The notes below the pieces were generated by a model. That model was not told the DNA's origin. It did no database searches and worked only from the letters and a program-made list of their open reading frames with translations. The position numbers and the translations under genes are program-made. Positions 1 to 29,229 of a stretch of 33,080 bases of DNA are shown here, in pieces; the stretch's first letter is position 1; every line of letters starts with the position of its first letter. Source of the stretch: an uncultured virus (IMG/VR IMGVR_UViG_3300005470_000001) (lineage: Duplodnaviria; Heunggongvirae; Uroviricota; Caudoviricetes); IMG/VR virus record IMGVR_UViG_3300005470_000001; one strand, 5' to 3'.

Positions 1-152
1 TCCTCAAAGGCATCAACGACCTCAGCCTCAAGCTCTGCAATGCGATTCTGAACCTCAAACGCGTCAATGTATGGCAACGCTGGAGCCCCTTGCTCCGAGT
101 CATACACATCCGCTGTGCCATTATTATACTGTACTACCCATATCGTTTTCAT
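1..152 (-). CDS. 5' part of a hypothetical protein (copy of 8147-8506), truncated by the window edge
   Basis: Identical to 8355-8506; AGGAGG RBS precedes the ATG at 152. Confidence 0.7.
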   Translation of the reverse strand, partial: MKTIWVVQYNNGTADVYDSEQGAPALPYIDAFEVQNRIAELEAEVVDAFE

Positions 153-814
153 TTCTCCTCCTTGTTGAATTTAAAATCTCGCACAGGACGAGCCTTGTAG
201 CTGTTGATCTTGTAGTTGAAGTACTGGTGGCCAGTGTAGAAATACTGGTTCCACGCGAAGTCAGCATTGTATTCCGACGAACTCCAGTAGACATAGGCTC
301 CAAAACCGCCAATAGCTACGCGATTTTTGTACATCTGATTCAGTTCATCCTTGGTCGGCAACCTCCAGCCTTCGCCAAGCGCTTCGACCACCTTAACTGC
401 CTCATCCCATGTGTAAATTCCACCAAGGTCTTGTGGATAGACCTCGAACTCAAGTTCTTGATACAGTGTTGTCGTCATTTCTCCTCCTTGTTCCTCCTTG
501 TTTGGTTTTAAATCTCGCACAGGACGAACCCTGTTATAGATGCTTTTGTAGGCGTTGCCATGGCCGCCAGTGTAGAAACACTTGAGCCACGCAATCTCCT
601 CGTCGTACTCCGACGAACTCCAGTAGTAGTAGGCTCCAAAACCGCCAATTTCTTCTTGCTCCAAATACATCAGCTCCAGCTCTTTTTTTGTTGGTAGTCG
701 CCATCCGTCGCCAAGTGCTTCGACAACCTTAACTGCTTCATCCCATATGTAAAATCCTTCGAGATCTTGTGGGTAAACCTCGAACCCAAGTTCTTGATGT
801 AGTGCTGTCGTCAT
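149..814 (-). CDS. Tandem two-domain DUF1566/C-type-lectin-fold protein, probable DGR target
   Basis: Two copies of W.EA...GWRLPT..EL...YWSSSE...AW...R.RPVR. Start moved from 862 to ATG 814, which follows AACAAGGAGGAGAA. Confidence 0.85.
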   Translation of the reverse strand: MTTALHQELGFEVYPQDLEGFYIWDEAVKVVEALGDGWRLPTKKELELMYLEQEEIGGFGAYYYWSSSEYDEEIAWLKCFYTGGHGNAYKSIYNRVRPVRDLKPNKEEQGGEMTTTLYQELEFEVYPQDLGGIYTWDEAVKVVEALGEGWRLPTKDELNQMYKNRVAIGGFGAYVYWSSSEYNADFAWNQYFYTGHQYFNYKINSYKARPVRDFKFNKEEK

Positions 815-830
815 TTCTCCTCCTTGTTTA

Positions 831-1061
831 TTACGAAAGGTTAAATGCTTCAATCTCTGCACTTGTTAGTTTTTCTAACGCAGACTCACGAAGTTTTATA
901 CGTTTAATCTCTTTTTTTATATAAGGAGATATATTTGTTTTCGTGTTATATTGCTTTCCATAAGCATCAACACCCCAACCACATTCATCGCAGTGCCAAT
1001 CATTGTGTCCTTCCATTATGTAAGACCCACAATTCTTACAAACAATTACATCGTGTCCCAT
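831..1061 (-). CDS. Small Zn-ribbon protein
   Basis: CKNC...CDEC motif; gene packing. Confidence 0.7.
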   Translation of the reverse strand: MGHDVIVCKNCGSYIMEGHNDWHCDECGWGVDAYGKQYNTKTNISPYIKKEIKRIKLRESALEKLTSAEIEAFNLS

Positions 1062-1062
1062 C

Positions 1063-1326
1063 TTAAACCTCCTCCCAATTTAGTTTAGCCCCACACTGAG
1101 GGCAAAAAGTCCATTCTTCGGATAGTCCCCTATATTCGCATTCCGAACAGTCCCAGTCTTTACGCCCTGATCCGTTATACACCGGTCTTATATATATTTT
1201 TTGCGGGTATTCTTCTGCGCGTTTCCTCCAGTAGCACACATCGCATAGGTCAAGGTCAACGCCCTTCTGTCTGCCATGTAGGCGTGGGTTGATGGCGTAT
1301 GATCCGCAATTTTTGCAGTTTATCAT
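1063..1326 (-). CDS. Double Zn-finger phage protein
   Basis: CKNC/CDVC and CSEC/CPQC motifs. Confidence 0.75.
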   Translation of the reverse strand: MINCKNCGSYAINPRLHGRQKGVDLDLCDVCYWRKRAEEYPQKIYIRPVYNGSGRKDWDCSECEYRGLSEEWTFCPQCGAKLNWEEV

Positions 1327-1631
1327 TTTTCCTTTTTGTTTAGCATTGCGTTTATAATTTGGGTAACTGGTGACTCAGTTGTCGCATATACTGCTATGTC
1401 TTCAAGCGCGCCTTCAAGCTCGGCTATGCGCTGAACTGCCTGTGTATACTTAGCACTCAGCTCAAAGTATCGGGTATGTGCAGTCTTGCTTGCTTCAGTA
1501 TGCAGCTCAGCAGTCCTCATACTCCTGTCCAGTTGCTCCTCAAGCTCAGTGATGCGCTCTCTCAAGATGTCTTCAACTCCTCTACTCTGTTGCATCTCTT
1601 CGATTTGTGACTCATTCATGTTTATCTTCAT
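1323..1631 (-). CDS. Hypothetical coiled-coil protein
   Basis: RITELE/RIAELE heptads; ATGA overlap with the next gene. Confidence 0.7.
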   Translation of the reverse strand: MKINMNESQIEEMQQSRGVEDILRERITELEEQLDRSMRTAELHTEASKTAHTRYFELSAKYTQAVQRIAELEGALEDIAVYATTESPVTQIINAMLNKKEK

Positions 1632-1756
1632 CTATATAACAATTATGAAATTCTCTATCCCAAATTTCTTCTTTCCAATACTTAACACTATTAAAAACAA
1701 TATCAACAAGCATTTTTATTTTGCTAATAAATTCTGTCATTTTTATTTTCATAATT

Positions 1757-2275
1757 TTATCTAATAATTAATGATTTTTTTGGTGTAATTTTAATACAAT
1801 CAGGGATTGTTTCAAGAACACCATCTTTAAAATCTTTTTTGATTATAGAAATATGTGGTTTAAATTCTTTAGTTGCATAACCACTTGATAAAAGTGAATT
1901 TTTATTTTCTTCAGTAATATCTTCTTTTAATTCCCAAGATTCAGTATTACGAATATTATAATTTCCTAAATCAGTTTTTAATTTACTTTCTCCACTTAAT
2001 TCCATTAATTGCAACATTTTATTACGTGCAAATTCAATTCGTGATTCACAGCTTAATTTGCGTGCTTTTAAACGATTTTCTTCTTCTTCATACATATTGT
2101 ATTGTGAACGATTATAATTAATCCATCCACGATAACGATCAAGTGAATCTTTTAAATCACCATTGAAATTATCTAAAAGAGCTTGAATTTCAGGAGTAAT
2201 TTCACCTTCACTTTCTATTAAAGAATTATCAATGATTTGATAAAGATTTAATAAATCTATAAATGAATTGTTCAT
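1757..2275 (-). CDS. Siphovirus Gp157-like protein
   Basis: LYQI...GEITPE N-terminus, E.RLKARK coiled coil, KLKTD.G C-terminal part, 172 aa. Confidence 0.75.
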   Translation of the reverse strand: MNNSFIDLLNLYQIIDNSLIESEGEITPEIQALLDNFNGDLKDSLDRYRGWINYNRSQYNMYEEEENRLKARKLSCESRIEFARNKMLQLMELSGESKLKTDLGNYNIRNTESWELKEDITEENKNSLLSSGYATKEFKPHISIIKKDFKDGVLETIPDCIKITPKKSLIIR

Positions 2276-2278
2276 ATT

Positions 2279-2686
2279 TTAAAAGTTAATTTTTTGTCCA
2301 TTAACAAAAACCTGTTCAGACATTTTTTTATCTACAACTGGTCCATTTAATGTTACATGTTTTGAATTACATCTAATCCTTGTATTATTTTTAGGATTTT
2401 TTATAATTAAATCTTGATTACATTCATATTTAGAGTTTTTGTAATGAGATTTAAAATGATTTGTTTGATTTATATTTTCTACTAAAAATATTCTTCTGAG
2501 AACTTCATTTCCACATTTTTTATTATCATGAAAATATGTAGAACTACTTGTATCTACAATAAAAACTTCATCATTAATGTTAATTATACAAGAATTGTTT
2601 GTTAACCAACTCAATGTATCTGTAATAATTTTCATTATTTTAGGATCTCTTATTGCAGCTTCATAAAAAGTATCATTTGTTGGCAT
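2279..2686 (-). CDS. Hypothetical protein
   Basis: 135-aa ORF in an operon-like arrangement. Confidence 0.65.
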   Translation of the reverse strand: MPTNDTFYEAAIRDPKIMKIITDTLSWLTNNSCIININDEVFIVDTSSSTYFHDNKKCGNEVLRRIFLVENINQTNHFKSHYKNSKYECNQDLIIKNPKNNTRIRCNSKHVTLNGPVVDKKMSEQVFVNGQKINF

Positions 2687-2719
2687 TATTATATTATTTT
2701 ATTAATAAAATTAATTGTG

Positions 2720-2792
2720 CTGGCAAGACAGGATTCGAACCTGTAACCGAGCGGTTAACAGCCGCTAGCTCTACCAATTGAGCTACTCGCCA
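2720..2792 (-). tRNA. trnN: tRNA-Asn(GTT)
   Basis: Acceptor TGGCGAG/CTTGCCA, anticodon arm AGCGG-CTGTTAA-CCGCT, T loop TTCGAAT. Confidence 0.95.
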
Positions 2793-2798
2793 GTTTAT

Positions 2799-2933
2799 TT
2801 ATTTATATGATTTACCACATACAGTACAAGTACAACCTTCGCTTTTTAATTTACTATTCATCCAACGTTTAAATTTACCAAGAAGTTTGTCTTGAAAAGC
2901 ATGTTCACATGTACATGTTCTAATTACCATCAT
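2799..2933 (-). CDS. 44-aa Cys-rich protein (MMVIRTCTCEH...CTCTVCGKSYK)
   Basis: Hand translation; below the ORF-track cutoff; CxC..H and CxxC motifs. Confidence 0.55.
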   Translation of the reverse strand: MMVIRTCTCEHAFQDKLLGKFKRWMNSKLKSEGCTCTVCGKSYK

Positions 2934-2949
2934 GATTATTTAATTTATT

Positions 2950-3081
2950 TTAGTTATGATAATCTTCACCTGCATACAAGTTGTCAAAATCAACTATTTC
3001 CACATGAACATCATTAGGGCATTCTACTACTTCAGCAACCCCTCCTGCAACATGGATAACAACAATTTTTTCTTCTTTCAT
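2950..3081 (-). CDS. 43-aa protein (MKEEKIVVIHVAGGVAEVVECPNDVHVEIVDFDN...)
   Basis: Hand translation; the second copy differs by conservative N-terminal substitutions and keeps the frame. Confidence 0.65.
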   Translation of the reverse strand: MKEEKIVVIHVAGGVAEVVECPNDVHVEIVDFDNLYAGEDYHN

Positions 3082-3123
3082 TATTAATTATTTTAGTTAT
3101 GATTTATACAAATTTATAATGAA

Positions 3124-3453
3124 TTATTTTTCATATTTCTTTCTGAGTCTCTCATACTCTTTCTTTTCTGATTCTTCTCTTTTGACTTTCAATTGAGCTT
3201 TCTTTTCCTTTGCCTTTACTTCGTTCTTCAATCGTCTTTCATATTCTTTATCAGTCTCAAAACGGTATGAAATCAAATAAAATTTAAAGTCATCATTATC
3301 CCATGTTACTACTCTAAATTTATGAAGTTCACCCGTAATTTTATTTGATAGGTTGACCAATTCATCTATTGCTTCTTCAATGGTTTTTTCATCAAAGATA
3401 TCGTCAAGATAGACGTGAATTCTTTTATCTTCAACTAATTGTTTCTGTTCCAT
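3124..3453 (-). CDS. Hypothetical protein with C-terminal coiled coil
   Basis: Start moved to MEQKQLVE (3453) to avoid overlap with the upstream gene; RFETDKEYERRL...ERLRKKYE tail. Confidence 0.7.
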   Translation of the reverse strand: MEQKQLVEDKRIHVYLDDIFDEKTIEEAIDELVNLSNKITGELHKFRVVTWDNDDFKFYLISYRFETDKEYERRLKNEVKAKEKKAQLKVKREESEKKEYERLRKKYEK

Positions 3454-3457
3454 ATTA

Positions 3458-3940
3458 TTAATTAATTTTAATTGAACCATCATCATTCCATTCATAACCT
3501 GAAATGTCGTACTTCTCTTCAAGAATGTTTTTAGAATAGCCACAAATGCTCATAGTATTCAAATTGATGAAGTTAGCTATCAATTCTCCGCTATCAACAT
3601 CAACAGCACCCAAAACTAAATTCCCGAAGACACTCGTCCTAACTTCAAACTTCCATTTCTTCAGTGGTGGTTCAACTTCTTTTAGATAAGTACAAACCTT
3701 ACCATCTGTTACTTCAGTAACAAGCTCTACTTCTTGATTTGTATAAGCACCAAAACTGCCTTTATGAACGCCGTAGATATACTTCTTACCATCTTCTTTC
3801 TCATAGGCGGTTATAATATCAATATTAGAAGGAAAATATCTATTTCTACCAACTTTCCTTTCATACCCAAGCGAGAACAGATGGTCTTGAACCTTTCGTG
3901 AATGGTCTTCGCTGTGGATTTTAATCTTAATATCTTTCAT
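3458..3940 (-). CDS. Hypothetical protein, paralogue of 11438-11923
   Basis: Shared KVQDHLFSLGYE and C-terminal YDISGYEWNDDGSIKIN. Confidence 0.8.
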   Translation of the reverse strand: MKDIKIKIHSEDHSRKVQDHLFSLGYERKVGRNRYFPSNIDIITAYEKEDGKKYIYGVHKGSFGAYTNQEVELVTEVTDGKVCTYLKEVEPPLKKWKFEVRTSVFGNLVLGAVDVDSGELIANFINLNTMSICGYSKNILEEKYDISGYEWNDDGSIKIN

Positions 3941-4038
3941 TTTCTTTTAATTTAGTTTACGATACATTCAAAATTTATAATAACATTTTGTAGGGCTGGG
4001 GGGACTCGAACCCCCACGGATTTCTCCAGTGGATTTTA

Positions 4039-4828
4039 CTTACCACTATAGCAGTTAGCTACCAGACTTTCTTGTCTATTTACAATCTATTCGTCTGTTT
4101 GTGGTCTGGACTATATCTTTACCATATCATTTCTGATTTAGGTATGCAGTACATAGTCTCTGAACCTTCCTCATGCAAAAATATAAACGACATTTTTGTT
4201 TAGAGGCTCGGATGCTGATTGACCAATATCAGTTATTTTTATAACATTTGAGTTCGTCATTTCTAACCACTCTTTAGTTAACTGATCTCTAAGGCTATCC
4301 CAGCAATTCTCTGCATTACTACTATACAGTTTCCTATATAGCGACCATTGTTGTTGAAGAAAACGATGTAAAGCATTGTGTTTGTTTACTGACATTATCA
4401 TAAAGTTAGATAATATATTGTGTTCAGGATTTTCATCAATATGATGAATAAAGATATCTTTTGATAACAAGAATCCTAAATCAATAATTGCTTGTCTACC
4501 TAAAGTATTACCTTTAGTACTCCTACTTACTTTATTATAATTTTCAGTATTCTTTTTTCTACATTTTAAATGAGTTAATTGGTTTGGTCTATTCATAATC
4601 ATTGATTCACCACATAATGAACAAACTCCTATACCATAACGTTTTTTAGTATTCTTGTTATAGTATTTTTTAACTCGTTCTCTATTATAGATTTTAGCAC
4701 ACTCTTTACATCTTTTTCTTTCAACTACTTCTTCTTTGCCACAATCAATACACATTTTCATATTTAGATAAGTTTAAGTTAAAAACTAAATATACAAAAA
4801 TGGTAGACAATAACAAAAGAAAAGTTTT
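4039..4828 (-). mobile_element. Group I self-splicing intron (790 nt) with HNH ORF
   Basis: 5' exon ends in U and intron ends in G. P AATTGCTGGGA (4308-4298), Q AATCAGCA (4220-4213), R TCAGAGACTA (4163-4154), S AAGATATAGTCC (4119-4108). P3 ATGCAG/CTGCAT; P2 hairpin with GAAA loop. Confidence 0.92.
4171..4761 (-). CDS. Intron-encoded HNH homing endonuclease
   Basis: HHIDENPEHNILSNF...HNALH HNH motif; N-terminal CxxC Zn motifs. Confidence 0.85.
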   Translation of the reverse strand: MKMCIDCGKEEVVERKRCKECAKIYNRERVKKYYNKNTKKRYGIGVCSLCGESMIMNRPNQLTHLKCRKKNTENYNKVSRSTKGNTLGRQAIIDLGFLLSKDIFIHHIDENPEHNILSNFMIMSVNKHNALHRFLQQQWSLYRKLYSSNAENCWDSLRDQLTKEWLEMTNSNVIKITDIGQSASEPLNKNVVYIFA

Positions 4829-4873
4829 AGTCCACAGCGTCTACCAGTTCCGCCACAACCCCATTAATATTTG

Positions 4874-5001
4874 TTCTTCAGGGTGGATTCGAACCACCAA
4901 GACTCAGTTTATCTCAACTGCCACATTGTCTAATTGTCTCATCTAAGTCTTTTATGTGGTAAATGAATAAGACAATGCTCTACCATTTGAGCTACTGAAG
5001 A
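4874..5001 (-). ncRNA. tRNA-like RNA with expanded, non-canonical anticodon region
   Basis: Perfect acceptor TCTTCAG/CTGAAGA, D arm GCTC-AAATGGTA-GAGC, T arm GGTGG-TTCGAAT-CCACC; about 50 extra nt in the middle. Confidence 0.75.
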
Positions 5002-5040
5002 ACCAAATTATATATAAGACCACCATATATATATAATAAG

Positions 5041-5114
5041 TAGGCCCTGTAGGATTTGAACCTACGACCCAGCGATTATGAGTCGCTTGCTCTAACCAAC
5101 TGAGCTAAGGGCCT
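5041..5114 (-). tRNA. tRNA with CAT anticodon, probably Ile2 (lysidine type)
   Basis: Acceptor AGGCCCT/AGGGCCT; arm AGCGA-CTCATAA-TCGCT resembles bacterial tRNA-Ile2. Confidence 0.9.
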
Positions 5115-5414
5115 TTATCTAAAGGTATCTCTACTCAAGAGAGATTTATTACAAACACCGCGTGTTAAACTTTAGTTACAAAATTTTGTTTCTAATCTAT
5201 ATTTAAAGTGAGAGTAACAATGACCATAATTAACATGTTTTTTTATTTTAAATACATTGTAAATATCTTTAAATAATACAGTAATGTTTTTCATTGTAAT
5301 ATACCTTGTTTATAGAATTAAAATTTTCAAAGAACAATTAAGTGGTATCCCTGGTCCCTGAGCCAGTGATGGTAATATTTCAACCCCAGTTGTTTTAACA
5401 CCAGATACCACAAG

Positions 5415-5488
5415 AGCTTCCTGAGGGACTCGAACCCCCAACATCCTCATTACAAGTGAGGTGCTCTACCAATTAAAGCTAAGGAAGC
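5415..5488 (-). tRNA. trnT: tRNA-Thr(TGT)
   Basis: Acceptor GCTTCCT/AGGAAGC; CCTCA-CTTGTAA-TGAGG. Confidence 0.93.
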
Positions 5489-5595
5489 AAAAATGTAGTA
5501 TATAAAATCATTTACATACTACATTAATAATAAATAATTTAAACTTATGGCGAATATTATTGAAGTATTATCAATTCCAGCTCGAAGTTTTAAAA

Positions 5596-5862
5596 TTATT
5601 TCACAACAAAATCTAAATCTTCAACTTTAAAACATTTAAAACGATTACTGTTTTTTTCAACATGGGTTTGTTCTTCGTCTTCAAAATGTGTATTTTTAAA
5701 ATCAAAAGGAGTAAAATTTAATGTATGATCTACAAAATACAAATCTAGAAAATAATTAGTATCATTTTCAACAAAATCTGTATTATCTCTTTTTATAGCA
5801 ATTACATATTTATCTTTCAATCTAACTAATGCTGTTGCATTATAAGTGGTTATATCTGACAT
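5596..5862 (-). CDS. Hypothetical protein
   Basis: 88-aa ORF immediately downstream of the phosphoesterase. Confidence 0.6.
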   Translation of the reverse strand: MSDITTYNATALVRLKDKYVIAIKRDNTDFVENDTNYFLDLYFVDHTLNFTPFDFKNTHFEDEEQTHVEKNSNRFKCFKVEDLDFVVK

Positions 5863-5869
5863 TTTATTT

Positions 5870-6379
5870 TTATTTTTTTAAATTATTAATAACAATATCT
5901 AATAAAACAGGTGTATAATTGATACATTCTACACTAACATTAAAATGATGTTTTCCCATATTTAATTCAGGATGAACTTCTGCTGTATTATGCATATGAC
6001 CATGTATATTATAAAAAGAAGTATTATTTAAATTTTGTATAGGTTCATGAGATAAAATAACATCATTTATTATAATAGGATATTTATAATACATGTAAAA
6101 TAAATCAATATAATATTGATCTTTTTCATTATCATGATTACCTTTTATTAATATAATTCTACCATTTAATGCATTTATAATTGAAGTAACATGCTCTTTA
6201 TTAATAGACATAGCTATATCACCTAAATGATATACAATATCATTTTTTTTGACAACAGAATTCCAATTATTAATTAATTCTTTTGTCATAATATCTACAT
6301 TTTCAAAAGGTCTATTACAATATTTAATTATATTATTATGTCCAAAATGTGTATCACTTATAATATATGTTTTATTCAT
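5870..6379 (-). CDS. Calcineurin-like metallophosphoesterase
   Basis: SDTHFGH, HLGD, GNHD, SH and HGHMH motifs. Confidence 0.92.
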   Translation of the reverse strand: MNKTYIISDTHFGHNNIIKYCNRPFENVDIMTKELINNWNSVVKKNDIVYHLGDIAMSINKEHVTSIINALNGRIILIKGNHDNEKDQYYIDLFYMYYKYPIIINDVILSHEPIQNLNNTSFYNIHGHMHNTAEVHPELNMGKHHFNVSVECINYTPVLLDIVINNLKK

Positions 6380-6406
6380 GTATAAAATTGTATTTTAAAT
6401 TTATAG

Positions 6407-6478
6407 CTGGGGAAGTAGGATTCGAACCTACGAGTGTCAGCTCCAAAGGCCGATGCCTTACCACTTGGCTATTCCCCA
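6407..6478 (-). tRNA. trnQ: tRNA-Gln(TTG)
   Basis: Acceptor TGGGGAA/TTCCCCA; TCGGC-CTTTGGA-GCTGA. Confidence 0.92.
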
Positions 6479-6491
6479 AGTTGTATATACT

Positions 6492-6668
6492 TTAATCCCC
6501 ATCTCCAGCTATTGAATCTAAATGACAAGTACAGTATTTTATAGTACTCATTTTATACTCAATATACTTCAAAATATCTTTTCTGAGTTCATCAATAGTT
6601 TCATTGTGACTTTGTTCACAAGGACAATTAAACCATTTTGCTTTATTAAAAATTTCTTCTAAATTCAT
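6492..6668 (-). CDS. 58-aa hypothetical protein (MNLEEIFNKAKWFNCPCE...)
   Basis: Hand translation; fills the gap before tRNA-Gln; GGAG upstream. Confidence 0.45.
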   Translation of the reverse strand: MNLEEIFNKAKWFNCPCEQSHNETIDELRKDILKYIEYKMSTIKYCTCHLDSIAGDGD

Positions 6669-7290
6669 TTTTTCTCCTTGTTTTTATAGGAACATATTTT
6701 CTTTGAAATACACCAAAACATACATTAAAAGAACCATCATCACATTTTTCAACATATGCTTTAGGTGAACGTTCATTTTTTATAGCATATTGAAATGCTT
6801 GATATTCAAGATCAACAATTCTTTTTTCCAAAGCCATGATAAGTAAATCTTTACCATTACTTGCATCCTTACAGCATTCAAGTTGTAGTTCTATATCTGC
6901 AATCCTATCATACAACTTTTTATTCGCCTCATAATCTTCAACTTCTTCACGCCATGTTGATGGTTTATCGGATACCACTTTGTCTATAGGCTCTTTGAGT
7001 GGTTTCAAGTTTCGCACAGGACGAACCCTGAAGTTGAAGTCCTTGTTGTAGCTGCTCTGGTTGCCATTGGAGAAGTACTGGTTCCACGCGTTGTCAGCAT
7101 CGTACTCCGACGAACTCCAGTAGTAGTAGGCTCCAAAACCACCAATATTTTCTTGCTCAAGGTACATCTGATTTAGCTCATCTTTTGTCGGCAACCGCCA
7201 ACCATCACCAAGTGCTTCGACAACTTTAATAGCTTTGTCCCACGAGTAAGAGCCATCGAGGTCTTTGTGGTAGATCTCAATATTTAACAT
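6646..7290 (-). CDS. DUF1566/CLec-fold domain fused to a coiled-coil extension, probable DGR target
   Basis: GWRLPTKDEL...YWSSSE...AWNQYF...RVRPVR; GAGGAGG RBS. Confidence 0.82.
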   Translation of the reverse strand: MLNIEIYHKDLDGSYSWDKAIKVVEALGDGWRLPTKDELNQMYLEQENIGGFGAYYYWSSSEYDADNAWNQYFSNGNQSSYNKDFNFRVRPVRNLKPLKEPIDKVVSDKPSTWREEVEDYEANKKLYDRIADIELQLECCKDASNGKDLLIMALEKRIVDLEYQAFQYAIKNERSPKAYVEKCDDGSFNVCFGVFQRKYVPIKTRRKNEFRRNF

Positions 7291-7427
7291 TCTTCCTCCT
7301 CTTTATAATATGCAGGTATGTGATTTTCATAAACAATAGCCGAACCACTTTCCAAATATCCACTGATTTCGTAATGTTTTGTTCCGCTTGAGAACATTAT
7401 CTTCAGTGTGTTCCAGATCTTTTTCAT
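7284..7427 (-). CDS. 47-aa protein, paralogue of 15124-15267
   Basis: MKKIWNTLKIMFSSGTKHYEISGYLESGSAIVYENHIPAYY...; conserved at the protein level with many third-position changes. Confidence 0.75.
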   Translation of the reverse strand: MKKIWNTLKIMFSSGTKHYEISGYLESGSAIVYENHIPAYYKEEEEC

Positions 7428-7439
7428 TTTTTTCTTTCT

Positions 7440-7679
7440 TTATTTTTTGATTTCAAGATCACTAATTGTGTCACCATACACTGTGATGGTGTGAGTATGT
7501 ATATGTCCATATTGATCTTTACAACGCACCTTGATGTGACGTGAATGTACGATACTGTTAAATCCTTCTAGATCACGTACTTCATCAACGGTGATTTCGG
7601 TGACATTATGAATGTCCATTGATGATACTGTCATTATTGTCTTTATTAATTTAGTTATCTCCGTTTTCATATGCGCCAA
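7440..7679 (-). CDS. Hypothetical protein (start probably internal)
   Basis: ORF packing. Confidence 0.55.
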   Translation of the reverse strand: MAHMKTEITKLIKTIMTVSSMDIHNVTEITVDEVRDLEGFNSIVHSRHIKVRCKDQYGHIHTHTITVYGDTISDLEIKK

Positions 7680-7845
7680 CTAACCAAGGTAGTCCTGCAA
7701 ATATAAGCATTACAAGACCACCAAGCAATGCACCTTCTAATGTTGAACTTTTGTCAAAACCAAGTGCTAATCCACCAAGTACACATAAGATAAGTACTCC
7801 AGTTCCTGGATGATCTTTAGCTCCTCTAATGATTCGCTTAATCAT
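7651..7845 (-). CDS. Small membrane protein (2 TM)
   Basis: Two hydrophobic segments; AGGAGG RBS. Confidence 0.7.
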   Translation of the reverse strand: MIKRIIRGAKDHPGTGVLILCVLGGLALGFDKSSTLEGALLGGLVMLIFAGLPWLVGAYENGDN

Positions 7846-7864
7846 ATATTGTCCTCCTAATATA

Positions 7865-8095
7865 TTAAAAACAAAGTGCTACCGCAGCTGCATAATAATG
7901 TGTATCGAAACCGTTCCGGCACAGGTACTCATCCATCAGTGTTGCGAGCGCCTTTTCAAGTTCTGCAATGCGCAGGTCTTTGCTCGCTATCCTGTCGTGC
8001 AGTTCATCAATGACAACCCTCCGCAGTGTGTGCGGACAATTGACCTCAAGTGCTGCTGCGTATGCCTGCTCAAGTTCTGCAATACGCTTCTTCAC
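7865..8095 (-). CDS. Hypothetical coiled-coil protein (start uncertain)
   Basis: RIAELE twice; frame is open up to the TAG at 8147-8149. Confidence 0.6.
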   Translation of the reverse strand: MKKRIAELEQAYAAALEVNCPHTLRRVVIDELHDRIASKDLRIAELEKALATLMDEYLCRNGFDTHYYAAAVALCF

Positions 8096-8146
8096 TGCTT
8101 CTTCAATGCGCGAGATGCTGTCGTTGTGTAGTCGGGTGAACTCTGT

Positions 8147-8506
8147 CTATTTCTCCCCCTTGTTTTCAACAGCCCTTTCAAATCTTTTGATCCAAGCTTC
8201 ACGGTCTTCTTCCCATTCATTCAGTGCTTCCAGCTTTCCCTCAAGCACCTCAATCTGTAGCTTCTGCATATCAACTCTTCCTTCTAACTTTATAACCTGC
8301 CCATCCTTTTCAAGCGCACCCTCTATGTGCCTTAATACTCCAAGATGATATCCATCCTCAAAGGCATCAACGACCTCAGCCTCAAGCTCTGCAATGCGAT
8401 TCTGAACCTCAAACGCGTCAATGTATGGCAACGCTGGAGCCCCTTGCTCCGAGTCATACACATCCGCTGTGCCATTATTATACTGTACTACCCATATCGT
8501 TTTCAT
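8147..8506 (-). CDS. Hypothetical coiled-coil protein
   Basis: AGGAGG RBS; RIAELE motif. Confidence 0.7.
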   Translation of the reverse strand: MKTIWVVQYNNGTADVYDSEQGAPALPYIDAFEVQNRIAELEAEVVDAFEDGYHLGVLRHIEGALEKDGQVIKLEGRVDMQKLQIEVLEGKLEALNEWEEDREAWIKRFERAVENKGEK

Positions 8507-9168
8507 TTCTCCTCCTTGTTGAATTTAAAATCTCGCACAGGACGAGCCTTGTAGCTGTTGATCTTGTAGTTGAAGTACTGGTGGCCAGTGTAGAAATACT
8601 GGTTCCACGCGAAGTCAGCATTGTATTCCGACGAACTCCAGTAGACATAGGCTCCAAAACCGCCAATAGCTACGCGATTTTTGTACATCTGATTCAGTTC
8701 ATCCTTGGTCGGCAACCTCCAGCCTTCGCCAAGCGCTTCGACCACCTTAACTGCCTCATCCCATGTGTAAATTCCACCAAGGTCTTGTGGATAGACCTCG
8801 AACTCAAGTTCTTGATACAGTGTTGTCGTCATTTCTCCTCCTTGTTCCTCCTTGTTTGGTTTTAAATCTCGCACAGGACGAACCCTGTTATAGATGCTTT
8901 TGTAGGCGTTGCCATGGCCGCCAGTGTAGAAACACTTGAGCCACGCAATCTCCTCGTCGTACTCCGACGAACTCCAGTAGTAGTAGGCTCCAAAACCGCC
9001 AATTTCTTCTTGCTCCAAATACATCAGCTCCAGCTCTTTTTTTGTTGGTAGTCGCCATCCGTCGCCAAGTGCTTCGACAACCTTAACTGCTTCATCCCAT
9101 ATGTAAAATCCTTCGAGATCTTGTGGGTAAACCTCGAACCCAAGTTCTTGATGTAGTGCTGTCGTCAT
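8503..9168 (-). CDS. Tandem two-domain DUF1566/CLec protein (duplicate of 149-814)
   Basis: Identical translation. Confidence 0.85.
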   Translation of the reverse strand: MTTALHQELGFEVYPQDLEGFYIWDEAVKVVEALGDGWRLPTKKELELMYLEQEEIGGFGAYYYWSSSEYDEEIAWLKCFYTGGHGNAYKSIYNRVRPVRDLKPNKEEQGGEMTTTLYQELEFEVYPQDLGGIYTWDEAVKVVEALGEGWRLPTKDELNQMYKNRVAIGGFGAYVYWSSSEYNADFAWNQYFYTGHQYFNYKINSYKARPVRDFKFNKEEK

Positions 9169-9184
9169 TTCTCCTCCTTGTTTA

Positions 9185-9415
9185 TTACGAAAGGTTAAAT
9201 GCTTCAATCTCTGCACTTGTTAGTTTTTCTAACGCAGACTCACGAAGTTTTATACGTTTAATCTCTTTTTTTATATAAGGAGATATATTTGTTTTCGTGT
9301 TATATTGCTTTCCATAAGCATCAACACCCCAACCACATTCATCGCAGTGCCAATCATTGTGTCCTTCCATTATGTAAGACCCACAATTCTTACAAACAAT
9401 TACATCGTGTCCCAT
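9185..9415 (-). CDS. Small Zn-ribbon protein (duplicate)
   Basis: Identical to 831-1061. Confidence 0.7.
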   Translation of the reverse strand: MGHDVIVCKNCGSYIMEGHNDWHCDECGWGVDAYGKQYNTKTNISPYIKKEIKRIKLRESALEKLTSAEIEAFNLS

Positions 9416-9416
9416 C

Positions 9417-9680
9417 TTAAACCTCCTCCCAATTTAGTTTAGCCCCACACTGAGGGCAAAAAGTCCATTCTTCGGATAGTCCCCTATATTCGCATTCCGA
9501 ACAGTCCCAGTCTTTACGCCCTGATCCGTTATACACCGGTCTTATATATATTTTTTGCGGGTATTCTTCTGCGCGTTTCCTCCAGTAGCACACATCGCAT
9601 AGGTCAAGGTCAACGCCCTTCTGTCTGCCATGTAGGCGTGGGTTGATGGCGTATGATCCGCAATTTTTGCAGTTTATCAT
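9417..9680 (-). CDS. Double Zn-finger protein (duplicate)
   Basis: Identical to 1063-1326. Confidence 0.75.
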   Translation of the reverse strand: MINCKNCGSYAINPRLHGRQKGVDLDLCDVCYWRKRAEEYPQKIYIRPVYNGSGRKDWDCSECEYRGLSEEWTFCPQCGAKLNWEEV

Positions 9681-9985
9681 TTTTCCTTTTTGTTTAGCAT
9701 TGCGTTTATAATTTGGGTAACTGGTGACTCAGTTGTCGCATATACTGCTATGTCTTCAAGCGCGCCTTCAAGCTCGGCTATGCGCTGAACTGCCTGTGTA
9801 TACTTAGCACTCAGCTCAAAGTATCGGGTATGTGCAGTCTTGCTTGCTTCAGTATGCAGCTCAGCAGTCCTCATACTCCTGTCCAGTTGCTCCTCAAGCT
9901 CAGTGATGCGCTCTCTCAAGATGTCTTCAACTCCTCTACTCTGTTGCATCTCTTCGATTTGTGACTCATTCATGTTTATCTTCAT
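9677..9985 (-). CDS. Coiled-coil hypothetical protein (duplicate)
   Basis: Identical to 1323-1631. Confidence 0.7.
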   Translation of the reverse strand: MKINMNESQIEEMQQSRGVEDILRERITELEEQLDRSMRTAELHTEASKTAHTRYFELSAKYTQAVQRIAELEGALEDIAVYATTESPVTQIINAMLNKKEK

Positions 9986-10110
9986 CTATATAACAATTAT
10001 GAAATTCTCTATCCCAAATTTCTTCTTTCCAATACTTAACACTATTAAAAACAATATCAACAAGCATTTTTATTTTGCTAATAAATTCTGTCATTTTTAT
10101 TTTCATAATT

Positions 10111-10629
10111 TTATCTAATAATTAATGATTTTTTTGGTGTAATTTTAATACAATCAGGGATTGTTTCAAGAACACCATCTTTAAAATCTTTTTTGATTAT
10201 AGAAATATGTGGTTTAAATTCTTTAGTTGCATAACCACTTGATAAAAGTGAATTTTTATTTTCTTCAGTAATATCTTCTTTTAATTCCCAAGATTCAGTA
10301 TTACGAATATTATAATTTCCTAAATCAGTTTTTAATTTACTTTCTCCACTTAATTCCATTAATTGCAACATTTTATTACGTGCAAATTCAATTCGTGATT
10401 CACAGCTTAATTTGCGTGCTTTTAAACGATTTTCTTCTTCTTCATACATATTGTATTGTGAACGATTATAATTAATCCATCCACGATAACGATCAAGTGA
10501 ATCTTTTAAATCACCATTGAAATTATCTAAAAGAGCTTGAATTTCAGGAGTAATTTCACCTTCACTTTCTATTAAAGAATTATCAATGATTTGATAAAGA
10601 TTTAATAAATCTATAAATGAATTGTTCAT
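10111..10629 (-). CDS. Siphovirus Gp157-like protein (duplicate)
   Basis: Identical to 1757-2275. Confidence 0.75.
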   Translation of the reverse strand: MNNSFIDLLNLYQIIDNSLIESEGEITPEIQALLDNFNGDLKDSLDRYRGWINYNRSQYNMYEEEENRLKARKLSCESRIEFARNKMLQLMELSGESKLKTDLGNYNIRNTESWELKEDITEENKNSLLSSGYATKEFKPHISIIKKDFKDGVLETIPDCIKITPKKSLIIR

Positions 10630-10632
10630 ATT

Positions 10633-11040
10633 TTAAAAGTTAATTTTTTGTCCATTAACAAAAACCTGTTCAGACATTTTTTTATCTACAACTGGTCCAT
10701 TTAATGTTACATGTTTTGAATTACATCTAATCCTTGTATTATTTTTAGGATTTTTTATAATTAAATCTTGATTACATTCATATTTAGAGTTTTTGTAATG
10801 AGATTTAAAATGATTTGTTTGATTTATATTTTCTACTAAAAATATTCTTCTGAGAACTTCATTTCCACATTTTTTATTATCATGAAAATATGTAGAACTA
10901 CTTGTATCTACAATAAAAACTTCATCATTAATGTTAATTATACAAGAATTGTTTGTTAACCAACTCAATGTATCTGTAATAATTTTCATTATTTTAGGAT
11001 CTCTTATTGCAGCTTCATAAAAAGTATCATTTGTTGGCAT
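10633..11040 (-). CDS. Hypothetical protein (duplicate)
   Basis: Identical to 2279-2686. Confidence 0.65.
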   Translation of the reverse strand: MPTNDTFYEAAIRDPKIMKIITDTLSWLTNNSCIININDEVFIVDTSSSTYFHDNKKCGNEVLRRIFLVENINQTNHFKSHYKNSKYECNQDLIIKNPKNNTRIRCNSKHVTLNGPVVDKKMSEQVFVNGQKINF

Positions 11041-11073
11041 TATTATATTATTTTATTAATAAAATTAATTGTG

Positions 11074-11146
11074 CTGGCAAGACAGGATTCGAACCTGTAA
11101 CCGAGCGGTTAACAGCCGCTAGCTCTACCAATTGAGCTACTCGCCA
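11074..11146 (-). tRNA. trnN: tRNA-Asn(GTT) (duplicate)
   Basis: Identical to 2720-2792. Confidence 0.95.
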
Positions 11147-11152
11147 GTTTAT

Positions 11153-11287
11153 TTATTTATATGATTTACCACATACAGTACAAGTACAACCTTCGCTTTT
11201 TAATTTACTATTCATCCAACGTTTAAATTTACCAAGAAGTTTGTCTTGAAAAGCATGTTCACATGTACATGTTCTAATTACCATCAT
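11153..11287 (-). CDS. 44-aa Cys-rich protein (duplicate)
   Basis: Identical to 2799-2933. Confidence 0.55.
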   Translation of the reverse strand: MMVIRTCTCEHAFQDKLLGKFKRWMNSKLKSEGCTCTVCGKSYK

Positions 11288-11303
11288 GATTATTTAATTT
11301 ATT

Positions 11304-11435
11304 TTAGTTATGATAATCTTCACCTGCATACAAGTTGTCAAAATCAACTATTTCCACATGAACATCATTAGGGCATTCTACTACTTCAGCAACCCCTCCT
11401 GTAACATGGATAACAACAACTCTTTCTTTTTCCAT
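11304..11435 (-). CDS. 43-aa protein (MEKERVVVIHVTGGVAEVVECPN...)
   Basis: Variant of 2950-3081 that spans the repeat boundary. Confidence 0.65.
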   Translation of the reverse strand: MEKERVVVIHVTGGVAEVVECPNDVHVEIVDFDNLYAGEDYHN

Positions 11436-11437
11436 TA

Positions 11438-11923
11438 TTAATTGATTTTAATTGAACCATCATCATTCCATTCATAACCTGAAATGTCGTACTTCTTTTC
11501 AAGTATATTTTTAGTATAGCCACAAATGGCCATGTTATCCAAATTAATTAAATTAGCTATCAATTCTCCACTTTTAACGTCAACAGCACCCAAAACTAAA
11601 TTCCCGAAAACAGTCTTCCTAACTTCAAACTTCCATTTCTTCAATGGTAGTTCAACTTCTTTTAGATAAGTACAAACTTTTCCATCTGTTACTTCAGTAA
11701 CAAGTTCTACCTCTTGATTTTCTATGTTATTGAAATCACTTACATTATAGAAATAGATATATATATATTTACCATCTATTTCTTCGTATGCGGTTATAAC
11801 ATCAAGTTTACCAATAAAATATGTTTTTCCAATTCCTCTCCATTCATATCCAAGCGAGAACAAATGGTCCTGTACCTTATGAGCATACTCTTCGTCTCTG
11901 ATTCTAATCTTAATGTTTTTCAT
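11438..11923 (-). CDS. Hypothetical protein, paralogue of 3458-3940
   Basis: Start moved to MKNIKIRIR (11923) because the longer ORF overlaps tRNA-Arg and the paralogue starts MKDIKIKI. Confidence 0.8.
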   Translation of the reverse strand: MKNIKIRIRDEEYAHKVQDHLFSLGYEWRGIGKTYFIGKLDVITAYEEIDGKYIYIYFYNVSDFNNIENQEVELVTEVTDGKVCTYLKEVELPLKKWKFEVRKTVFGNLVLGAVDVKSGELIANLINLDNMAICGYTKNILEKKYDISGYEWNDDGSIKIN

Positions 11924-11953
11924 TTTTTTGATATTATTGTAAAAATTTACATG

Positions 11954-12025
11954 TACTCTCCAGAGGAATCGAACCTCTATATACTGGTTAGAAGCCAGTG
12001 GCATTATCCGTTATGCTAGAAGAGC
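11954..12025 (-). tRNA. trnR: tRNA-Arg(TCT)
   Basis: Acceptor GCTCTTC/GGAGAGT; ACTGG-CTTCTAA-CCAGT; T arm AGAGG-TTCGATT-CCTCT. Confidence 0.92.
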
Positions 12026-12031
12026 TAAAAT

Positions 12032-12412
12032 TTATTCAAATTTTAATTCTCTTCTACATTTACTACAAAGAATTACATCAGATTTATTAAATAAAATAAT
12101 ATCACCACAATTTGAACAAATTGTCTGAGATTCTAATTCTGCTTCCATTATATACTTATCAATTTTTTCATTTGCTTGATTAGTATAAAAATAAAGCATT
12201 TCATATTTAGTTTTAATTTCATTTATTTTAAATGATTCTTTTAAACTATCATCTTTATTGATAACTTGCATTATTTTTAAACAAAGTTTATCAATAATAT
12301 TATACCAACCATCACCAACACATATACCATTTTTCATAGGAGATTCTGAAAATCTATTTGAAAATATTTCTGGATATTTAGTAAATAGTTTTTGTTCTAA
12401 TTCTTCTCTCAT
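12032..12412 (-). CDS. Conserved phage hypothetical protein with C-terminal Zn finger
   Basis: C.GDGWY.II...IK.K...L.FY...S..IC..CG pattern, common in phages. Confidence 0.75.
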   Translation of the reverse strand: MREELEQKLFTKYPEIFSNRFSESPMKNGICVGDGWYNIIDKLCLKIMQVINKDDSLKESFKINEIKTKYEMLYFYTNQANEKIDKYIMEAELESQTICSNCGDIILFNKSDVILCSKCRRELKFE

Positions 12413-12502
12413 TTTTATATTAATAATTATTAATAAAATGATTCATGATTATATATGTTACAATGACACCCGACAAAAAACACGTAAAATATAACATTTT
12501 AT

Positions 12503-12808
12503 TTATTTAATTTTATTCTTTATTTTTGAAATAGCAGAAAGTATAACATTGTATCTATCTTCCATCTCTTTGTTTTTATTATGTGTCTGATAAAGAGTAT
12601 TTAATGCTGTAACAACATCAACATTATCATATCTCTTTAACTCTATTGCTTCGTTTAATACTTTCACTTTATGTATAGCATGTTCCTTTTCATATACAGG
12701 ACAATCATTTACCACATTAGTATAATAATTTAAATCAGAAATAATTGCTTCCCTTATTACTTCTAATTCTAATGGACTTAATTCTTCAACTAATTGTTTC
12801 TGTTTCAT
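12503..12808 (-). CDS. Hypothetical protein
   Basis: 101 aa; N-terminus MKQKQLVE shared with 3124-3453. Confidence 0.7.
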   Translation of the reverse strand: MKQKQLVEELSPLELEVIREAIISDLNYYTNVVNDCPVYEKEHAIHKVKVLNEAIELKRYDNVDVVTALNTLYQTHNKNKEMEDRYNVILSAISKIKNKIK

Positions 12809-12839
12809 TATTATTTTGTTTTATGTTATAAACCAAATT

Positions 12840-12913
12840 GACCAGTAGTAGGATTTAAACACTACATCTCCTTAATACAATTTAAGGGCTTTATTCATTT
12901 AAGCTATACTGGC
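12840..12913 (-). pseudogene. Degenerate tRNA (possibly Thr-TGT derived)
   Basis: Acceptor GCCAGTA/TACTGGT and D stem intact; anticodon loop of irregular size; T loop TTTAAAT with a stem bulge. Confidence 0.6.
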
Positions 12914-13012
12914 ATTACCAATAAAATATCATATGATTTATCTATTGGTTATTACATTAATATATTTAATATAATAAATATAATATTATATACAAATAAA
13001 TATATTTGTTGA

Positions 13013-13468
13013 TTAAAAAATTACAACGATTTTTCTTTCTTTTAAAACATTTTTATTGTTTTTATCTATAATAATGATATCACTTAATCCATGAATATCA
13101 CCAGGACAACCAACACTCCATCCATATTTAAAATTATCAGATGAATTGAGTATCCAACCAAAAGATACATGTATTGGATTTATTTCTTCAATTTCAAACT
13201 CAGATGCATTGAATTCATTTAATTGAAAATTATTTTGAATATAATTGAATTTTAACAAAAATTCTGTATGTACAGAATCTACAAATGTGATTATACCAGA
13301 TATATATTGTCTATCAATTGTTTTTGCAACAAAAATAGAATCAACATTATCTATTATAAGTGCATAAATCTCTTCTGATGTCATTGTTTTTTTAATTAAA
13401 TAATAAATACACACTATACTATTATATATAGTGTGTATATAAAATACTAAACATATAATAAATGACAA
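13013..13468 (-). CDS. Hypothetical protein (start probably internal MTSEE)
   Basis: Long AT-rich ORF. Confidence 0.6.
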   Translation of the reverse strand: MSFIICLVFYIHTIYNSIVCIYYLIKKTMTSEEIYALIIDNVDSIFVAKTIDRQYISGIITFVDSVHTEFLLKFNYIQNNFQLNEFNASEFEIEEINPIHVSFGWILNSSDNFKYGWSVGCPGDIHGLSDIIIIDKNNKNVLKERKIVVIF

Positions 13469-13674
13469 TATAACCAGACTCCTAGTCTTTGAGCATTATA
13501 TTATAATGTTGTGTAATTATTATGGTTCAATATAAAAGTTATTCATTACTTGTTTTGATAATTCTTTACATAAAAGTAATTTTTTCGCTGCGTTCACTTT
13601 ATGTTTTATATTATACTTTACAATAATCCTAATAACAACTTATAATAAAATGATTGTTCATTTAAAATATTAGT

Positions 13675-13980
13675 TTAGAAATCATAGTAAGTACTTGGAA
13701 CAGAAGGAACCCAAGAAATATAACCTGCACAACAAAGTAGAAACCATATAATTAAAAATACTAGTTTATATGGTATATAATAACGATTTTCAGAATCATT
13801 ATTATAATTTTTTACATTAATAAGTACATGATCGTTTTCAAGTGTATCAAAAAAGTTTTTTATACTAATTTTAAAACTTTCAAGATCAAATGTTTCTTTT
13901 TTATCATTCAGAAAATAATTGATAATAAGAGGCATTATGAACATAGTTGTCCAAAATAGTATAGCAAAAAAAGTATTCAT
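13675..13980 (-). CDS. Membrane protein (2 TM)
   Basis: Hydrophobic N- and C-terminal segments. Confidence 0.65.
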   Translation of the reverse strand: MNTFFAILFWTTMFIMPLIINYFLNDKKETFDLESFKISIKNFFDTLENDHVLINVKNYNNDSENRYYIPYKLVFLIIWFLLCCAGYISWVPSVPSTYYDF

Positions 13981-13981
13981 T

Positions 13982-16620: not shown

Positions 16621-16632
16621 CTACCAAACCAC

Positions 16633-27783: not shown

Positions 27784-29229
27784 ATGGCAATTGCAGAAAA
27801 CAAACTTATAATTAAAAAGATGCCTTGGCATGCTAACATGACAGAAAAAAACCACCTTGGTGCTGCCATGATTATCAAACCAGAAGTCTTTGAGAGTAAG
27901 GCTAATCAGATTTTTAGCGCATATACTTACTCTGATAACCCTTTGACAGGTATGTTAATGAAGACTGGTTCTACTCGTACTATTGGTACTAGTGAGTGGG
28001 AGTGGGAGCTTCGTGGTTTATCTACCCGTCCTCTGGTTATTGTTGAAAATCTTAATGTAAGCGATACTACTCCGGGTAAGTATAATCAAGAATTTAATAT
28101 TAAACTTGATGAGGATTGGTTCCTTGCTGGTGATGTTATTCATCCTGGTAATCCCAATGTTCAGGTTCGTATTCAGGAAGTTGTTGGTAAGCAGGGTAAC
28201 GGTTGTGTTTATTCTGTGCGTTACATGAGTGATGACAGAAATGCTTTCCTTGATCCTAAATATCTTGATCCTGGTACTCGTTGGGCGAAACTTTATTCGC
28301 AGTACGGTGAAGCTGAAGAGCAGTCTGGTTCAACTCAGTATTCGCTTCCTTTAACACTTTCAAGCCGTATGTCACGTTATCGTAAGATGTATAAGGTTAC
28401 CAATGATGCTGCTAATCAGGTCCTCGCAATTAAGATTCCTGACTCTAATGGTGTTTATCATGACACTTGGGTTGGTTATGCTGAGGTTGAGTATTGGAAG
28501 CAATGGTATCGTGAGCTTGAGCGTGGTGCATGGTATTCTAAATCTACCAACACTGTTAATAGTGCAAGTGGTCGTCCTATCTATTCTGGTCCCGGTGTAC
28601 AAGAGTTGCTGAAGGATAGCAATATTTACTACTACAATCAACTTAGTGCAAAACTGATTGAAGAGTATCTTCTTGATATCTTCTACGGTAAGACTCGCCC
28701 TGGTTCTGGTCGTCAGATTAAGGCTTACACTGGTGAGTATGGTATGCTTCAGTTCCACCGTGCTGTTCAGAGCCTTGTTGACAATAGTGGATTCATTAAA
28801 ACTGTTGATATTTATCAGAAGCCGCAGGCAAGTTCTTATACTTCTGTAGGTGCTGCTGCTGGTCTTCAGTATGTTAAATACAACATGGCTAATGGTTGTT
28901 CACTTGAGCTTGAGCATAATCCGCTTTATGATGATGTTCAGATTAACTTTGAGAAGGATGAAGTCACTGGTTATCCGATTGAATCAATGAGGTATACATT
29001 CCTTGATGTTACCGATGGTGGACTTTCTGCAAAGAATGTTCAGCTTGTTGATAGAACCAATGGTTTTGCTCTTGGATATGTTGCTGGTATGCAGACACCT
29101 TATGGTCCGAACACTAAGGGACTTATGTCTCACAGTGGTGGATACTATGAGATGCATGTTGAAAAACAGCAGGGTATTCACATTGAAGATCCTACTCGTT
29201 GTGGTGAGCTTATTCTTCGCAGATCATAA
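27784..29229 (+). CDS. Major capsid protein (crAss-like)
   Basis: 481 aa, strong high-expression codon bias, TGEYG..QFH and LEHNPLYDD motifs, position. Confidence 0.9.
   Translation: MAIAENKLIIKKMPWHANMTEKNHLGAAMIIKPEVFESKANQIFSAYTYSDNPLTGMLMKTGSTRTIGTSEWEWELRGLSTRPLVIVENLNVSDTTPGKYNQEFNIKLDEDWFLAGDVIHPGNPNVQVRIQEVVGKQGNGCVYSVRYMSDDRNAFLDPKYLDPGTRWAKLYSQYGEAEEQSGSTQYSLPLTLSSRMSRYRKMYKVTNDAANQVLAIKIPDSNGVYHDTWVGYAEVEYWKQWYRELERGAWYSKSTNTVNSASGRPIYSGPGVQELLKDSNIYYYNQLSAKLIEEYLLDIFYGKTRPGSGRQIKAYTGEYGMLQFHRAVQSLVDNSGFIKTVDIYQKPQASSYTSVGAAAGLQYVKYNMANGCSLELEHNPLYDDVQINFEKDEVTGYPIESMRYTFLDVTDGGLSAKNVQLVDRTNGFALGYVAGMQTPYGPNTKGLMSHSGGYYEMHVEKQQGIHIEDPTRCGELILRRS

Follow-up and report, generated by a model that had tools for sequence, protein, structure and literature searches.

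Diversity-generating retroelements (DGRs) have been described as self-contained cassettes that act within their own genome; here we describe variable regions (VRs) that lie on a phage and match a template in a bacterial chromosome. The DNA analysed, hereafter the window, is a stretch of 33,080 nucleotides from an uncultured virus (IMG/VR record IMGVR_UViG_3300005470_000001) that is, by its capsid gene and its synteny, part of a crAss-like phage. It encodes three distinct small genes of the Lcl_C/DUF1566 family (A, B and C), all on the minus strand in the accessory and tRNA region and two of them within a direct repeat. Each VR is a copy of one template repeat (TR), found in the DGR of the green sulfur bacterium Chlorobium phaeovibrioides, with its changes concentrated at template adenines; a DGR origin of the tracts is, judged from the sequences, near certain. 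We consider it probable that the three genes are orphan, largely frozen DGR targets, written at different times by a Chlorobium-type DGR acting in trans.

The preliminary description of this DNA, made by eye from the letters, had reported aligned blocks of 40 codons, GCC...CGTCCTGTGCGA, and these lie where it placed them, at 179–298 in gene B, 515–634 in gene A and 7012–7131 in gene C, all on the minus strand (Table 1). The first two recur identically at an offset of +8354, as it had also said, within an exact direct repeat of 3047 bp. Between the first and third blocks 19 codons differ, 16 of them at positions 1 or 2 and three at the third position only, a recount that reproduces the earlier figures exactly; the predominance of NNY/NNY pairs held as well, with 15 of the 16 codons following the pattern rather than the 14 originally counted. 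Upstream of the block the paralogs differ at the third position in almost every codon, whereas within it third positions are frozen and positions 1 and 2 of NNC codons vary. For B and C, third-position differences are found at 25 of 48 codons upstream compared with 4 of the 44 non-adenine third positions in the tract (Fisher p = 1e-5), and nucleotide identity rises from 0.67 upstream to 0.93 on the tract scaffold. Because the tract is so much better conserved than the gene that surrounds it, it would have been refreshed from the TR lineage, and thus rewritten, after the paralogs had diverged. Two of the VRs had been described as internal to their proteins; they are not deeply so, although A does run on into a linker and gene B, and C into a tail of 120 residues.

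The single template postulated from these blocks exists, differing from the Chlorobium-type TR (loci L203 and L295) at one or two codons; the inferred template has AAC where the Chlorobium-type TR has TAC, after GAG. In IMG/VR, a 17-mer from the start of the block was found in three contigs only, all crAss-like and each with a single copy. A degenerate pattern of the scaffold matched 43 places in viral contigs; many of these proved to be classical VR/TR pairs from other DGR families, so that a scaffold of this class is typical of DGRs. When metagenome contigs were scanned with a 17-mer, at least 122 stretches were returned, including L203 and L211. In L203 a VR is followed 716 nt downstream by an adenine-rich copy, the TR, in the canonical order of Lcl_C target, bAvd (PF22296), TR and RVT_1 reverse transcriptase (RT). 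Across 185,579 species genomes (one per species), the 3′ 17-mer occurs in 46 stretches, two of which stand in a VR/TR context, both in C. phaeovibrioides BrKhr17; the other 44 were set aside as unrelated chance matches in GC-rich genomes. BrKhr17 (NZ_RXYK01000002.1, locus L295) carries one VR and one TR, 716 nt apart, on its chromosome, and the metagenomic loci L203 and L211 are 96.7% and 99.4% identical to this genome. The DNA upstream in the phage genes is only distantly similar to the Chlorobium target.

Most of the metagenome matches (L134–L255) belong to a related and very abundant DGR family with VRs ending ...CGGGTCCGTGCTGTTCGGGCTTTTTAAC; its TRs (L189, L232 and L246) end GGGGTTTTAAAC, followed by a hairpin, and many of the contigs have a GC content of 31–45%.

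With the TR in hand, mismatches could be sorted by template base. Against the 134-nt Chlorobium TR (45 adenines and 89 other bases), the VR of gene C is changed at 14/45 adenines and 2/89 other positions, both of the latter at the edges of the tract; B is changed at 16/45 and 6/89, A at 20/45 and 11/89, and the homologous gene of phage G002, a 75-kb crAss-like relative (79% complete), at 19/45 and 6/89. The VR of Chlorobium itself differs from its TR at 23/45 adenines and 0/89 other bases. The enrichment of mismatches at adenines is significant (p from 6e-5 to 3e-6), and the same trend is obtained with the TR of L203 as the reference. A lack of such enrichment against a real TR had been fixed beforehand, in the preliminary description, as grounds for abandoning a DGR origin; the three window genes show the reverse.

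A further gene on this scaffold lies on a contig of 4020 bp (L176; gene at about 2926–3197, minus strand), a small Lcl_C gene with no RT that differs from the Chlorobium TR at 19/45 adenines and 8/89 other bases. Its neighbours (pentapeptide-repeat genes, a gene resembling phosphoadenosine phosphosulfate (PAPS) reductase and a DNA methylase) make L176 a third phage-like lineage, and its accession falls in the same record series as that of the contig with the Chlorobium-type RT, L211. Comparison of L176 with L215 was discarded as a test of variability: the two VRs differ at two adjacent bases of one AAC codon, but their upstream parts differ by indels.

The phage can be placed from the window itself and from its relatives. 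Among the 46 open reading frames (ORFs) of the window searched against Pfam is a member of the Crassvirus major capsid protein family (Table 1). The complete relative G005 (96,316 bp, 100% complete) has a capsid protein that is 94% identical, and its 71.7–96 kb are collinear with the right half of the window. Contig G003 comes from the same species, with 99.8% identity to window positions 3989–7229 and then about 46 kb more that reach into the replication module. A megablast search of window positions 1–9200 against GenBank phages gave nothing beyond tRNA-level matches to T4-like phages, and an attempt at rightward extension through the last gene of the window found no near-identical IMG/VR contig past its end. 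Sixteen sequencing runs share part of the window, each with at most 0.20 of the sampled words and all as contigs.

The earlier statement that the window holds neither an RT nor a template stood up to Pfam, blastn and tblastn searches, in which just five VR copies appeared. No match to RVT_1 (PF00078) or Avd was found among the 46 window ORFs, and PF00078 had no match in G001–G004 or in five crAss-like genomes that are 98–100% complete, G005 included. Across the window and G001–G005, blastn with the real TR recovered only VR copies (five in the window and one each in G002–G005), and tblastn with the Chlorobium RT and Avd gave nothing below E = 2.8. In IMG/VR, three exact patterns contained in the TR revealed no viral copy of it, and no close relative of the Chlorobium RT was found there.

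G005 also encodes a 245-residue Lcl_C protein (L133 1372–2109) beside a helicase-like gene, at a locus different from that of the window genes. The gene is AT-rich except for its VR-like stretch, which is rich in GC and only 64% identical to the TR; it has the look of a similar target that is older and has decayed.

Whether the phage VRs are still being diversified was judged by comparing independent assemblies. The VR of gene C in G003 is identical at all adenine sites, between flanks that are 99.8% identical. The VR of gene A is unchanged in P0002, a recombinant that joins the domain of A to the tail of C, and that of gene B is unchanged in P0121, a recombinant with an A-like N terminus. G002 and G004, which are 99.75% identical over 18,656 nt (41 mismatches and one gap), share an identical VR. 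Among close relatives the VRs are thus not hypervariable: the same alleles recur in near-identical or recombinant backgrounds, one codon of gene C excepted. Flanks change and recombine while VRs stay as they are, which is the opposite of what an active DGR produces.

The sequences that direct homing have decayed as well. Homology to the Chlorobium VR ends at GTGCG and about half of the next dozen bases differ, such that the initiation-of-mutagenic-homing (IMH) element has drifted; none of the three phage copies retains the canonical stop (TTTTTAA), and AACCA survives as a remnant of the 3′ flank. Downstream of the Chlorobium VR lies a GC hairpin of 11 bp, but no stable hairpin was detected within 96 nt downstream of the phage VRs (z from −0.8 to +0.4), and the pairing of an IMH with a downstream hairpin that characterizes a DGR target is absent from the phage copies. 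For phage BPP-1, hairpin and IMH are reported to be needed for efficient homing and to be sufficient to retarget a DGR (PMC3240598, in the part available). Present rewriting of the phage VRs appears unlikely.

Because the tract is identical in scaffold to the TR, the phage genome would at some time have shared a cell with a Chlorobium-type DGR, and the tRNA genes of the window point in the same direction. The tRNA-Met is 94–97% identical to its counterparts in the genus Chlorobium, with matches in 78 of 78 genomes; in a phylum-level draw of 301 genomes it matched 66 at 93% or above, 62 of which were in the family-level draw, the others matching at 93% or below. The outgroup matches, in four Bacteroidota genomes and one Bdellovibrionales genome, reach 77–87% over partial length. 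The tRNA-Gln (6406–6478) is 86–88% identical to tRNA genes of the genus Chlorobium. Most likely, the phage infects green sulfur bacteria that bear the DGR. A 32-nt CRISPR match at 91% in G055 was rejected as chance, as it lies in an AT-rich, spacer-less stretch with no array.

The expectation of a C-type lectin (CLec) fold was borne out by both profile and model. PF07603 scores of 45.5, 36.8 and 48.5 bits exceed the gathering cut-off of 34.9 and place all three genes in Lcl_C. An AlphaFold2 model of gene B built on a 71-sequence alignment has a mean predicted local distance difference test score (pLDDT) of 89.5 and replaces an earlier, discarded model from seven sequences (pLDDT 61, with the VR part below 50). 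Its top match in the PDB is the C-terminal domain of Legionella Lcl (8q4e_A; E 6.4e-7, TM score 0.75), followed by C-type lectins, and the sequence profile also matches 8q4e_A (E 2.5e-12). As in DGR targets, the VR lies at the C-terminal end of the domain within this fold. Inspection of the protein sequences of A, B and C revealed no signal peptide, and the Chlorobium target is a protein of 399 residues with an N-terminal hydrophobic (signal or membrane) segment and repeat domains. Because the phage proteins are bare CLec-fold domains without signal peptides, they are read as intracellular binding modules, and it is likely that they have fixed, different specificities on a binding face shaped by DGR mutagenesis; anti-defence, as put forward in the preliminary description, is a candidate role.

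These observations can be assembled into a sequence of events. The VR tracts lie at the 3′ ends of three paralogous, signal-less Lcl_C modules of about 100 residues and would have been rewritten in the order A, then B, then C, because non-adenine drift is graded among them. They would have been written by a Chlorobium-type DGR that shared the cell but resided on a different replicon. Rewriting would now be rare or have stopped, because alleles recur unchanged, the IMH has drifted, the stop is lost and the GC hairpin is missing. The preliminary description had offered diversification in trans and fossil capture from another DGR as alternatives; elements of both survive, as the TR and RT are on a bacterial chromosome, in keeping with action in trans, and the alleles are nearly frozen, in keeping with fossils.

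Several points weigh against this reconstruction. If the phage copies have no working IMH and hairpin, retrohoming into them is hard to explain, and an identical pattern would result from homologous recombination with host VR or TR DNA by way of the conserved tract arms. The 90% cluster of protein C, comprising three members from three contigs, is identical except at residue 55 (Y, N or T), the codon for which (window 7126–7128) is the first AAC codon of the tract; in the VR of L203 itself, the second base of the matching codon is given as N. A change in C limited to the 5′-most codon is not accounted for by 3′-anchored homing. In GC content the phage (26–29%) lies further from the Chlorobium locus (55%) than is usual between phage and host. 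A search of 121 Chlorobiaceae genomes gave no CRISPR-spacer link to window positions 11402–31401, a weak negative with two or three candidates scored per genome, and for positions 1–11401 none appeared among the matches listed for 78 genomes, again with two or three candidates each. Finally, the equivalent of 52–71.7 kb of G005 (about 20 kb) lies outside the DNA covered for this phage species and could hold an RT and TR in cis, and protein C is also on record on a contig of 95,080 bp that lies outside the DNA searched.

Of the alternatives, a host chromosomal DGR that still rewrites the phage genes during infection, diversifying phage binders, would draw on the cognate TR and RT in Chlorobium and is consistent with at least four diverged phage genes that each carry their own adenine pattern on a TR-identical scaffold, with the Y/N/T polymorphism at a single AAC codon of C and with the report that avd-TR-brt functions in trans from a plasmid (PMC5758913, as excerpted). 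Yet four independent C sequences agree at all the remaining diversified sites, the alleles of A, B and G002 are fixed, the IMH is degraded and the hairpin absent, and 3′-anchored homing should not give a change confined to the 5′-most codon; we regard such continued rewriting as unlikely. Capture, in which homologous recombination at the conserved arms would have brought in the tracts from host VR or TR DNA, without reverse transcription into the phage genome, requires neither an IMH nor a hairpin in the phage. In its favour, every copy has arms of 15–18 identical bases on either side of the variable core, recombination among the paralogs is demonstrated by P0002 and P0121, and the 3047-bp repeat carries a Gp157/Mu Gam-like gene. 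However, none of the three phage alleles equals the Chlorobium VR alleles compared (L295, L203 and L175) and the arms are very short; capture, the outcome of which is indistinguishable from homing with the present data, seems to us improbable.

An ordinary DGR in cis, for which the RT, Avd and TR of the phage would lie outside the window and A, B and C would be non-adjacent targets, could reside in the roughly 20 kb of the species genome beyond the DNA examined. Complete DGR cassettes are reported in crAss-like phages (PMC7290462, in the section seen), non-adjacent targets within 50 kb are described as common in phage DGRs (PMC5758913, likewise), and the scaffold of gene C is pristine. Set against this, searches of the window, G003, G005, G002 and four further crAss-like genomes that are 98–100% complete turned up no RT, TR or Avd, IMG/VR yielded neither a viral copy of this TR nor a close RT, and the VR alleles are invariant between samples, all of which makes a cis element quite improbable. 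A reading without any DGR, in which diversifying selection acts on ordinary paralogs and the NNC pattern arose by chance, is effectively refuted, for although the W..F..G...VR.VR motif is general to Lcl_C domains, the scaffold agrees with a real TR at every base, the mismatches are adenine-specific and synonymous sites are frozen inside the tract only. We therefore retain orphan targets written in trans by a Chlorobium-type DGR, and now largely frozen, as the preferred account.

Table 1 Features of the window (positions in the 33,080-nt stretch)
Feature	Position	Strand	Details
Gene B	149..478	-	109 aa; single Lcl_C/DUF1566 domain; no signal peptide; VR about 179-312; PF07603 E 1.1e-11
Gene A	485..814	-	Lcl_C domain; ATG at 814; VR about 515-648; PF07603 E 5.2e-9
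Gene C	6646..7290	-	214 aa; N-terminal Lcl_C and 120-aa tail; VR about 7012-7145; PF07603 E 1.3e-12
Second identical copies of B (8503-8832) and A (8839-9168)	8503..9168	-	Offset +8354
Left copy of exact 3047-bp direct repeat	1..3047	.	Left boundary is the window edge; first mismatch at 3048
Right copy of 3047-bp direct repeat	8355..11401	.	Identical to 1-3047
Phage tRNA-Met(CAT)	5040..5114	-	93-97% identical to Chlorobiaceae tRNA
Crassvirales major capsid protein	27784..29229	+	PF23898 E 2.1e-120

Genes A and B are closely coupled. Gene A has no stop, its frame continuing past two AAGGAGG motifs in a Shine-Dalgarno-like linker and on through the start codon (ATG) of gene B, such that read-through gives a tandem two-domain ORF of 221 residues (149–814), which is on record as P0147; a separate gene B product besides this ORF is possible. 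The stop of gene B overlaps the ATG of the next gene. The tail of gene C (6646–7011) is coiled-coil-like with several cysteines and matches no Pfam or PHROG family; it is kept in relatives with different VRs (P0004, P0005, P0006 and P0009).

The 3047-bp repeat contains A, B, a zinc-ribbon ORF, a coiled-coil ORF, a Gp157/Gam-like ORF and a tRNA-Asn, and diverged continuations of it follow (3454–3740 and 11434–11720 at 91%; 3786–3946 and 11769–11929 at 75%). Contig G003 departs from the order of the window at 3989, and positions 1–3988 would therefore represent a tandem-like duplication peculiar to this genome, or else two variants joined during assembly. The window has a GC content of about 28%, with a background of 22–33% and islands of 40–48% at 1–1630 and about 7000–10000. 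In its first 18 kb every gene is on the minus strand, and this part holds six tRNA genes, a Gp157/Mu-Gam-like gene, a phosphoesterase, an HNH-like ORF and many small ORFs without a family. The HNH/endonuclease VII-like ORF (4171–4761) lies between stretches resembling the 3′ halves of tRNAs (about 3990–4060 and 4860–4990), with T-arms of the GGTTCGAA type; neither ARAGORN nor Rfam calls these stretches, which may be split, intron-bearing or decayed tRNA genes.

Parts of this arrangement have precedents. The C. phaeovibrioides DGR (L295, with its twins L203 and L211) shares with the phage genes the same TR scaffold over 134 nt and a VR of the Lcl_C class ending R.RPVR, but its target has a stop immediately after the VR and a downstream GC hairpin and adjoins bAvd, TR and RT, whereas each phage gene encodes a bare domain and has no such neighbour. 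The phage proteins belong to the same domain family as the CLec2 or 'category d' targets (DUF1566, DUF823 as well as Fib_succ_major, with LdtA of Legionella), about half of which are, in the portion of Wu et al. 2018 that deals with them, short DUF1566-only proteins (PMC5758913); the small size of the phage genes is thus not new in itself. Unlike the phage genes, these targets are described there as having RT and TR in the same genome, LdtA being a surface lipoprotein (PMC5758913). In Treponema denticola, as here, one TR is reported to serve several dispersed VRs far from the RT (PMC5758913 and PMC4891356, in extract); known remote targets lie on the same chromosome as their DGR, whereas here a phage carries the targets and a bacterial chromosome carries the DGR.

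Among phages, crAssphage LMMB is a likewise Crassvirales genome with a DGR-diversified gene, but the part of the report concerned describes a complete cassette and a tail-collar fibre target (PMC7290462), as opposed to small accessory-region genes and no RT or TR found for the window phage. Trans-complementation and transplantation in BPP-1 indicate, in the sections consulted, that a DGR acts on the VR of another replicon when given an IMH and hairpin (PMC3240598 and PMC5758913); that case is a laboratory construct, whereas the phage copies here have no recognisable hairpin and a drifted IMH. Small DUF1566-only targets, multiple and remote targets and action in trans from a plasmid are therefore all on record already (PMC5758913, in part). 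The passage of Wu et al. on remote targets expects them only for cellular DGRs and not for phage-associated ones (PMC5758913), and the literature searched gave us no account of a host DGR with targets on a phage.

The boldest extension of these results, which we think rather doubtful, is that a crAss-like phage of green sulfur bacteria keeps an RT-less CLec family that the DGR of its host rewrites in trans during infection, amounting to outsourced hypermutation in which the TR serves as a marker of host range. If the tracts were written in trans, natural DGRs would be able to act across replicons, orphan VRs could help to assign hosts to uncultured phages (here Chlorobium to a crAss-like phage), and surveys based on RT genes would miss a class of diversified proteins. 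Even if the tracts are fossils, their graded decay from A to B to C would provide a natural time series of what becomes of a VR after diversification stops.

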